Source of the DNA: an uncultured bacterium
GTDB lineage: Bacteria > Auribacterota > JACPWU01
NCBI GenBank assembly: GCA_964640155.1
Contig: CAZXEQ010000004.1
Span: 90,001-122,000, forward strand
Reading direction: 5' to 3'
DNA length: 32,000 nucleotides
The notes below the pieces were generated by a model. It saw only the letters and a program-made list of their open reading frames with translations. It searched no databases and was not told the DNA's origin. This document shows, one piece after another, positions 29,185 to 29,388 of the stretch (positions are counted from its first letter, which is position 1; the number at the start of each line of letters is the position of its first letter). A program made the position numbers and the translations under genes.

Positions 29185-29251
29185 AAATTTATCTCCTTTA
29201 TTCTAAATTTTGTTTGTTTGCACAAACTTCTAATTCTCTGATTGTATTAAT

Positions 29252-29267
29252 AGCAATATACATGCCA
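29252..29267 (-). promoter_or_regulatory. candidate sigma54 (-24/-12) promoter upstream of dnaK
   Basis: The - strand reads TGGCATGTATATTGCT against the consensus TGGCACG-N4-TTGCW. GG and GC fall in the canonical positions with exact spacing. It lies 68-83 nt upstream of the dnaK ATG, and a GAFTGA-type activator is encoded immediately upstream. Confidence 0.6.
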
Positions 29268-29354
29268 ACTAAAATTAATTTTAAATATTTTGTAATATAC
29301 TCTTAAGCAAATATTTATATTTTTAATTTTTTTGATTTCAAAAAGAGAGCATTT

Positions 29355-29377
29355 GCATGAGACATAATGTCTCATGC
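29355..29377. promoter_or_regulatory. perfect 23-bp palindrome: candidate enhancer (UAS) for the sigma54 activator, or a transcript-end hairpin of the RR gene
   Basis: GCATGAGACAT-A-ATGTCTCATGC, with 11-bp perfect arms. It lies 11 nt after the RR stop codon, and its centre is about 100 bp upstream of the -24 element. No adjacent U-tract on the - strand (AAATGCTCTCTTTTTG follows). Confidence 0.45.
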
Positions 29378-29388
29378 GAATAGGGACA

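Follow-up and report, generated by a model that had tools for sequence, protein, structure and literature searches.

In bacteria, the control of the Hsp70 and Hsp60 chaperones is well charted and is dominated by sigma-32, by HrcA with the controlling inverted repeat of chaperone expression (CIRCE) and by a few other repressors. The closest described systems to the one considered here come from Chlamydia, Bradyrhizobium and Myxococcus. In Chlamydia trachomatis, expressing the ATPase domain of CtcC induces hrcA, grpE and also glgC (PMC7482065; PMC8762339); the chlamydial CtcC is without a DNA-binding domain, and the sigma-54 element at hrcA lies within a sigma-66 promoter that is also under CIRCE/HrcA control (PMC7482065). 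In Bradyrhizobium japonicum, groESL3 is among the well-known RpoN-dependent genes (PMC4842269), and Bradyrhizobium groESL3 is co-regulated with nitrogen-fixation genes (PMC6604987). In Myxococcus xanthus, the two-component HsfB/HsfA phosphorelay has an NtrC-like regulator that directly activates lonD, a heat-shock gene (PMC9109919, citing Ueki and Inouye 2002). Here we examine a 32,000-nt stretch of DNA from an uncultured bacterium (contig CAZXEQ010000004.1 of assembly GCA_964640155.1, positions 90,001 to 122,000), hereafter the window, in which a predicted sigma-54-type -24/-12 promoter, TGGCATGTATATTGCT, stands between the gene for an NtrC-type response regulator and the operon dnaK-groES-groEL. 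From the comparison of sequences set out below, we consider it probable that this element is a working sigma-54 promoter that drives the operon.

Results

The -24/-12 element in front of dnaK

The intergenic region between the regulator gene and dnaK is 204 nt long (29185..29388, minus strand), and within it TGGCATGTATATTGCT (29252..29267, minus strand) is predicted to be a sigma-54-type promoter on the strength of its consensus match and its conservation. When scored by consensus matching and shuffles, rather than by a position weight matrix, it is the window's sole match to TGGCAYG-N4-TTGCW with 0 mismatches (0.04 expected; 3 of 100 shuffles had any). Its GG and GC doublets are exactly 10 nt apart, and the near-consensus element with GG-N10-GC spacing that had first been reported at 29267-29252 on this strand is thus present as described, as an exact match to the consensus. 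The bare GG-N10-GC pattern is uninformative in the window, where it was observed 118 times vs 104 expected. The element has the same orientation as dnaK, and the distance from the C of its GC to the dnaK ATG (29184) is 68 nt.

Transcription from sigma-54 promoters usually starts 11-12 nt past the GC. Placed by this usual distance, the start would fall near 29241, which leaves some 57 nt of leader ahead of the dnaK ATG, as originally proposed. The predicted 5' untranslated leader (29185..29241, minus strand) runs from this putative start and has an AAAGGAG ribosome-binding site. Its RNA folds no better than shuffles (z = -1.33) and matched no Rfam family, and the idea of an RNA thermometer or other structured leader RNA was dropped on these two grounds. 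A AAATTTAGAA(GTT) motif occurs twice in the leader (29190-29235, minus strand) and is also seen in the dnaK leaders of three of the relatives described next (L044, L045 and L040).

Conservation in relatives and independence from gene order

GG-N10-GC before dnaK is kept in ten further relatives' loci (nine distinct), which range from 37 to 67% GC; loci are referred to here by L numbers. The sequence upstream of dnaK is again TGGCATGTATATTGCT in L001, whose regulator is 97% identical to that of the window, and reads TGGCACATATATTGCT in L040 (regulator 80%), TGGCATATATATTGCT in L042 (75%), TGGCATGATTATTGCT in L046 (72%), TGGCATAAAACATGCT in L044 (70%) and TGGCATAGAAACTGCT in L045 (70%). It is AGGCATGGCAATTGCT in L048, from a genome whose regulator (L041) is 76% identical, TGGCATCCTAATTGCT in L053 (DnaK 76%) and TGGAACGCCGCGTGCT in L051/L052 (67% GC), and in the Tritonobacter-like L050 (58% GC) TGGCATGGGAATTGCT lies before a small gene abutting dnaK. 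The distance from the element to the dnaK ATG is 49-83 nt in L001, L040, L042, L044, L045, L046, L048, L051 and L053, with spacers that differ; in L050 the element is 17 nt before the small receiver-like gene (131 aa; 5605-6000) that abuts dnaK. A genome scan with the regulator returned one close relative, L001, and its remaining 38 loci, which hold distant NtrC homologues, were left out of this comparison.

In an alignment of eight orthologous regions (A2), whose columns are on average 58% identical, GGCA and TGCT do not vary at all, and the invariant columns are limited to these two tetranucleotides, to columns of the dyads considered below and to a few AT columns. The GG/GC motif is kept before dnaK in every relative examined while spacer and flanks diverge. 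The order kinase-regulator-dnaK is likewise kept in most close relatives, and where it is broken or lost the promoter is still found at dnaK. In L042 a 2.5-kb AbiE-like insertion splits the regulator from dnaK, in L046 an inserted gene of 867 aa (6567-9170, no Pfam family) lies between the two, and GCA_016178055.1 has its regulator (L041) and its dnaK-groES-groEL (L048) on separate contigs; in all three the promoter and the dyads stay at dnaK. The inserted DNA of L042 (3634-4828 and on to ~5800) encodes an AbiEii-like toxin-antitoxin pair, and the insertions of L042 and L046 are both of mobile or foreign DNA.

These loci bear on whether the motif could be a chance or non-functional match, in which case the operon would owe its transcription to sigma-70-type promoters alone or to polymerase reading through from the regulator gene. 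Such an explanation would be suited by the AT-rich region, in which -10-like hexamers are numerous, and by the lack of an evident terminator between regulator and dnaK. Against this, an exact match is expected only 0.04 times per window. The GG and GC doublets are the same in every relative across the range of 37 to 67% GC, while the bases next to them differ. The element is also retained in L048, L042 and L046, for which read-through is impossible or remote, and it recurs before clpB and hsp20 (see below). We regard a chance match as very improbable.

Predicted activator-binding dyads and the AT-rich spacer

Two dyads upstream of the element are predicted activator sites. The proximal one, GAGACATTATGTCTC (29359..29373), is a perfect palindrome of 15 bp centred 100 bp upstream of the GG, and the corresponding distance is 93-104 bp in 8 loci. 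It is the window's only match to the dyad at no more than 1 mismatch (0.12 expected), and against shuffled upstream regions the proximal dyad has P <= 0.0015 in 8 of 9 loci. The distal one, GATGCATAATGTCCC as read on the minus strand (29383..29397), agrees with GRGACA-N3-TGTCYC at 10 of 12 positions and is centred 124 bp ahead of the GG; it overlaps the stop codon of the regulator gene, it is found at 117-128 bp in 8 loci, and shuffles reach its score at P ~0.0005. These statistics are partly circular, as the loci that supplied the dyad consensus also served to score it. Distances from the dyads to the GG are kept within about 10 bp across loci. Independent support for their being activator sites comes from the dyads travelling with dnaK in L042, L046 and L048, and from the presence in relatives of a single dyad at the promoter of the regulator operon itself.

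Between the dyads and the promoter lies an AT-rich block, TAAATATTTGCTT (29305..29317, minus strand), which resembles an IHF site (YAA-N4-TTGATW). The TAA and TT columns of this block, TAA-N4-TT(G), are conserved in alignment A2, and L045 has an exact TAAGTCATTGATA. An IHF-type role for the block might be entertained on this resemblance, and we offer it only as a weak suggestion.

Other promoter signals in the leader

CIRCE, as TTAGCACTC-N9-GAGTGCTAA with up to 4 mismatches, is absent from the window and from 11 relatives' loci, and the sole 5-mismatch match in the window falls inside a coding region. Similarly, CTTGAAA-N13-17-CCCCAT with up to 2 mismatches does not occur at 29185-29400. The reported lack of CIRCE and of a sigma-32-like element in the leader thus stands at these thresholds.

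Two sigma-70-like hexamer pairs are present. The first, TTGAAA-N16-TATAAA, lies at about 29341-29314 (minus strand), a small correction to the 29337-29310 given originally, when this pair was named as a possible alternative to the sigma-54 element; it is not conserved in relatives. The second, TTGGCA-N16-TACAAT (29241-29268, minus strand), overlaps the sigma-54 element and is the best sigma-70-like match of the region (10/12), but beyond the window it occurs only, and weakly, in L001. Taken alone, the bases of the window fit both a sigma-54 and a sigma-70 reading, and a single genome does not decide between them. The overlap recalls the chlamydial hrcA promoter with its sigma-66/sigma-54 tandem.

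It may be that both kinds of promoter are used, with sigma-70 acting in the AT-rich leader to give basal dnaK-groESL expression and sigma-54 adding an inducible boost, a scheme that would complement rather than replace sigma-54 control. The chaperone genes are essential, which counts for this scheme, as does the presence of both hexamer pairs in the leader. The tandem sigma-66/sigma-54 arrangement at chlamydial hrcA (PMC7482065) also speaks for it, and bound but unactivated sigma-54 polymerase might in addition damp the sigma-70 promoter, as proposed for Chlamydia hrcA. However, neither hexamer pair is kept in relatives, in which the TACAAT position reads TAAACA, ATCCGT, GAGTGG, TGCTGG, TCCTGA or TTTGAG, and sigma-70-like matches are no commoner than in shuffles (22 vs 23 expected). 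We consider dual control of this sort possible, though rather unlikely.

The kinase-regulator operon

Upstream of dnaK on the same strand are genes for the NtrC-type response regulator (447 aa; 29389..30732, minus strand; Pfam Response_reg, Sigma54_activat, AAA_lid_14, HTH_8) and for a PAS histidine kinase (394 aa; 30729..31913, minus strand; Pfam PAS, HisKA, HATPase_c). The two overlap by GTGA and are translationally coupled. The regulator has a receiver domain (Response_reg, 1.6e-29) with phospho-acceptor D52 within LTDLRMP, an AAA+ domain (Sigma54_activat, 1.9e-74) with Walker A GESGTGKE at 170, GAFTGA at 217 and LFLDE (Walker B) at 238, and a C-terminal Fis-type helix-turn-helix (HTH_8, 1.7e-16) with LGISRRTLHRKL at 429. 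The coupled kinase and regulator described in the original prediction, with GAFTGA and helix-turn-helix intact, are therefore borne out. The kinase is cytoplasmic, with its H-box His169 in AHEIGNP at residue 168 and with N, G1 and G2 boxes present; PAS, HisKA and HATPase_c are its only domains, and there is no receiver domain among them. AtoC and AtoS are the best-scoring NCBIfam models for regulator and kinase, but both score below the equivalog cutoffs (475.5 vs 714 and 253.5 vs 646), and the closest solved structures to the regulator are Aquifex NtrC4 (4l4u) and NtrC1 (1ny5). By defining features the pair is not a member of AtoSC, CtcBC or HsfBA; it would work like an NtrC-type system.

The first gene of this operon encodes a small membrane/zinc-ribbon protein, of which the window holds only the 3' end (31918..32000, minus strand), cut by the window edge. 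The last residues of the window protein, NKIDSYLKKKVVK*, agree with the C-termini encoded by the ~180-aa pre-kinase genes in L001, L040, L042, L045 and L046 (L001 4095-4628; L040 6270-6824; L042 528-1061; L045 4263-4814; L046 3571-4032). The protein, ~150-185 aa long, is predicted to have several membrane helices and carries a zinc ribbon at its C-terminus, EGWxCPKCSSKMxF..CWNCG (CPKC...CWNC), and its gene is always first in the operon, in the window as in the five relatives. It matched no Pfam or NCBIfam family, and a metagenome scan with its alignment (A1) found nothing. Conceivably, it serves the cytoplasmic PAS kinase as a partner or as a sensor.

In the same five relatives the regulator operon is headed by a sigma-70-like promoter, TTGACA-N17-TATAAT, with one GRGACA-N3-TGTCYC dyad 10-25 nt past the -10 (L001 4005-4075; L040 ~6170-6228; L042 ~440-492; L045 ~4180-4227; L046 ~3470-3525). 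A single dyad just 3' of the -10 suggests negative autoregulation of the kinase-regulator operon in these relatives. The matching region for the window falls just past the window edge.

Recurrence in metagenomes

We scanned JGI metagenomes for a composite pattern of the -12/-24 element, a gap of 85-115 nt and the dyad; 113 stretches matched, of which 80 were returned as loci. The first downstream gene encodes DnaK in 12 of the 80 loci (10 distinct promoters), ClpB in 3 (2 distinct promoters) and HSP20 in 4 (4 distinct promoters), and the probability of such enrichment for chaperones by chance is ~1e-35 under a crude binomial model. The dnaK genes found in this way are joined to groES-groEL in all loci with enough sequence, and the contigs with matches range from 37 to 68% GC. 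One of the DnaK proteins is that of an NCBI "Lentisphaerae bacterium" metagenome-assembled genome (MAG), and another has its nearest named homologues in MAGs of Kiritimatiellia, Verrucomicrobia and Lentisphaerae. Judged from these matches, the composite motif is clearly spread across the Planctomycetes-Verrucomicrobia-Chlamydiae (PVC) group, though MAG labels are imprecise. The original prediction had held that a phosphorelay with sigma-54 at the core chaperones would be an unusual circuit; the arrangement is not peculiar to this genome, being common to Ca. Auribacterota and to contigs that group with Lentisphaerae/Kiritimatiellia-labelled MAGs.

Further matches in the scan precede small receiver-like or zinc-ribbon proteins (L070, L077, L088, L089, L110, L113, L130). 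These echo the 131-aa gene of L050 and the pre-kinase zinc-ribbon protein of the window's clade, while looking unrelated to the former; the small proteins of L089 and L130 bear a CxxC...CxNCG ribbon, and several of the small-protein loci adjoin AtoS/AtoC-like pairs ~44% identical to those of the window.

The chaperone operon, its neighbours and kin

The operon downstream of the element comprises dnaK (27250..29184; Pfam HSP70, 9.9e-272), groES (26939..27226; Pfam Cpn10, NCBIfam GroES) and groEL (25257..26912; TIGR02348), all on the minus strand, with spacers of 23 nt between dnaK and groES and 26 nt between groES and groEL. DnaK is above the NCBIfam DnaK equivalog cutoffs (1052 vs 648; 1012 vs 822), and GroEL is above that of TIGR02348 (879 vs 582) and far below the models for the chlamydial GroEL2 and GroEL3 variants. 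As these cutoffs are passed, and as GroEL carries a GGM C-terminal tail, the proteins are canonical chaperones and not divergent paralogues. Behind groEL is a predicted intrinsic terminator hairpin (25187..25228, minus strand; -27.8 kcal/mol, z = -5.7, a stability reached by 0 of 200 shuffles), after which comes UUUAAAUUU, and past this a sigma-70-like TTGAGT-N17-TATATT stands ahead of pgm. With a strong terminator 3' of groEL and then a promoter belonging to pgm, the transcription unit would be dnaK-groES-groEL.

Further along the minus strand are, by Pfam match, pgm (23759..25135), clpB (21145..23730), glgC (19700..20944), glgA (18216..19694) and a galT-like gene (17204..18223). With two GH57 genes, pgm, glgC, glgA and the galT-like gene form a glycogen/glucan cluster (12873-25135, minus strand) that flanks clpB and lies directly 3' of the chaperone operon. 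A sigma-54 element was looked for before pgm, clpB and glgC in the window and none was seen. glgC, a CtcC/sigma-54 target in Chlamydia (PMC7482065), thus sits 6 kb downstream in the window without a -24/-12 element. The remainder includes, on the plus strand, an ordinary tryptophan operon segment (59-4167; trpD-like, trpC, trpF, trpB, trpA) and equally ordinary genes for tRNA-Cys(GCA) and tRNA-Leu(TAA) (10272-10466).

The nearest relatives of the regulator (67-97% identity) belong to MAGs whose label is "Chlamydiae bacterium" or Ca. Auribacterota, with remoter homologues (55-59%) in Verrucomicrobia and Kiritimatiellae MAGs. Ca. Tritonobacter lacicola, assigned by NCBI to Ca. Auribacterota within the PVC group, has a DnaK 73% identical to that of the window. 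The window thus comes from an uncultured member of the PVC group, in all likelihood of Auribacterota. The close MAGs (L001, L041, L042, L048, L051) bear inconsistent labels, being called 'Chlamydiae bacterium', 'Chlamydiota bacterium' or 'Candidatus Auribacterota' according to submitter.

Discussion

The original prediction that a two-component system and sigma-54 control dnaK-groES-groEL is supported by conservation, by synteny, by the loci in which regulator and dnaK are separated by an insertion or unlinked, and by the lack of conservation of the sigma-70-like hexamers. For the elements described here, whose geometry, conservation, independence from gene order and regulon-like recurrence (clpB, hsp20) are plain in the loci compared, a mechanism modelled on the NtrC paradigm may be proposed. 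Upon a signal, the PAS kinase would autophosphorylate on His169; proteotoxic or heat stress seems the most plausible signal, a guess made from the targets. The phosphate would pass to Asp52 of the adjacent NtrC-type regulator, which in its phosphorylated form would assemble on the two tandem dyads, centred ~100 and 124 bp before the GG. By way of the intervening AT-rich DNA, perhaps with an IHF-type bend, the regulator would loop onto a closed complex of sigma-54 RNA polymerase at 29267-29252, where its GAFTGA loops and ATP hydrolysis would open the promoter. Transcription would then run from near 29241 through dnaK, groES and groEL to the hairpin at 25228-25187. Phosphotransfer, oligomerisation, looping, open-complex formation and the start near 29241 are all carried over from the paradigm. 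That sigma-54 is present, that the regulator binds the dyads, where transcription starts and what the signal is are likewise inferred.

Several points weigh against this proposal and need to be set beside it. Besides the partial circularity of the dyad statistics, the dyads of L053 are off the usual distance and those of L050 and L051 are less clear. rpoN was found neither in the window nor in the loci of relatives, and a regular expression for the RpoN-box peptide gave 0 matches in 47 loci (L001-L047); the intact GAFTGA activator speaks only indirectly for an rpoN in the genome. An activator-dependent promoter also raises a question of basal expression for essential chaperones, to which the sigma-70-like hexamers of the leader could contribute. 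Lastly, the 6-kb flanks of the scan-found dnaK loci hold no kinase or regulator, so adjacency of the regulator is not general.

This last point leads to the possibility that the sigma-54 promoter is real but that its activator is some other enhancer-binding protein encoded elsewhere, with the adjacent kinase-regulator pair serving a different target. The scan loci with no kinase or regulator within 6 kb of dnaK would fit this, as would the unlinked regulator and dnaK of L041/L048 and the 54-59% identical regulators without a nearby dnaK (L047). On the other hand, the regulator adjoins dnaK in 6 close relatives and is ~3-5 kb away in L042, L046, L050 and L051, the same dyad stands at the regulator operon's own promoter, and the distal dyad overlaps the regulator stop codon. 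A separate activator therefore seems improbable to us, and we favour the adjacent pair as the means by which the sigma-54 promoter is activated.

Given that the only conserved promoter signal is the -24/-12 element with its enhancers, a phosphorelay and an activator that consumes ATP would be needed for the operon to be expressed. The comparative data suggest that entire PVC lineages control their chaperones in this way, clpB and hsp20 included. A broader proposal, which we put forward tentatively and at somewhat less than even confidence, is that sigma-54 with the GRGACA-N3-TGTCYC enhancer is the ancestral master control of dnaK-groESL, clpB and hsp20 across several PVC phyla, including Auribacterota and Lentisphaerae/Kiritimatiellia-labelled lineages, in place of sigma-32 or HrcA/CIRCE. 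The link of CtcC and sigma-54 to hrcA-grpE-dnaK would then be a reduced remnant, left after CtcC lost its DNA-binding domain. The whole picture is a prediction in uncultured organisms. If it is true, an activator-based mode would be added to heat-shock control, uncultured PVC phyla would gain a concrete DNA motif for annotation, and there would be an evolutionary explanation for chlamydial sigma-54 touching hrcA-grpE. It would also prompt one to ask which signal is detected by a cytoplasmic PAS kinase that is paired with a small membrane protein of zinc-ribbon type.

In the open-access literature searched, the coverage of which is partial, no account was found in which sigma-54 governs a canonical dnaK-groESL operon or the set dnaK/clpB/hsp20, and beyond Chlamydia, Bradyrhizobium and Myxococcus no open-access sigma-54 case was found for dnaK, clpB or hsp20. 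Rodionov et al. 2004 had been considered as a delta-proteobacterial precedent for sigma-54 in heat shock and was dropped, as that paper covers only sigma-32 and CIRCE. HsfA/HsfB had originally been named as the closest precedent, but CtcC/sigma-54 on hrcA-grpE in Chlamydia (PMC7482065) and groESL3 in Bradyrhizobium (PMC4842269) are closer, the chlamydial case being the nearest. HsfB is a hybrid kinase and HsfA targets lonD, secondary-metabolite genes and pilY1 (PMC9109919), whereas the window kinase is without a receiver domain and the target here is the core Hsp70/Hsp60 operon.

The Chlamydia CtcB/CtcC system (AtoS/AtoC) resembles that of the window in belonging to the PVC superphylum, in pairing a PAS kinase and an NtrC-type regulator with sigma-54, and in having targets in the chaperone system. 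In contrast to CtcC, the window regulator has HTH_8 and conserved dyads, and the likeness is one of features. The targets also differ, being hrcA-grpE(-dnaK) with CIRCE in Chlamydia and dnaK-groES-groEL without CIRCE in the window. As with groESL3, a chaperonin operon stands behind a -24/-12 promoter. groESL3 is said, in work attributed to Fischer et al. in 1993, to be one of five groESL paralogues, tied to symbiotic nitrogen fixation and activated by NifA; unlike it, the window operon has canonical DnaK and GroEL and a dedicated two-component activator.

In its architecture, the locus is most readily likened to enteric NtrB/NtrC at glnAp2, where an activator of REC-AAA+-HTH type is likewise combined with a -24/-12 promoter and with tandem dyads ~100-140 bp upstream, the DNA between these two being AT-rich or bendable. 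The glnA paradigm also includes a site that overlaps a sigma-70 promoter and is used for autorepression. The NtrC systems (NtrB/NtrC, NtrC1, NtrC4) nevertheless act on genes for nitrogen assimilation, and the dyad that they recognise has another sequence. With HrcA/CIRCE and sigma-32, finally, the system of the window shares its targets, dnaK and groESL, but its control would be exerted by an ATP-dependent activator, and not by a repressor or a dedicated sigma factor.

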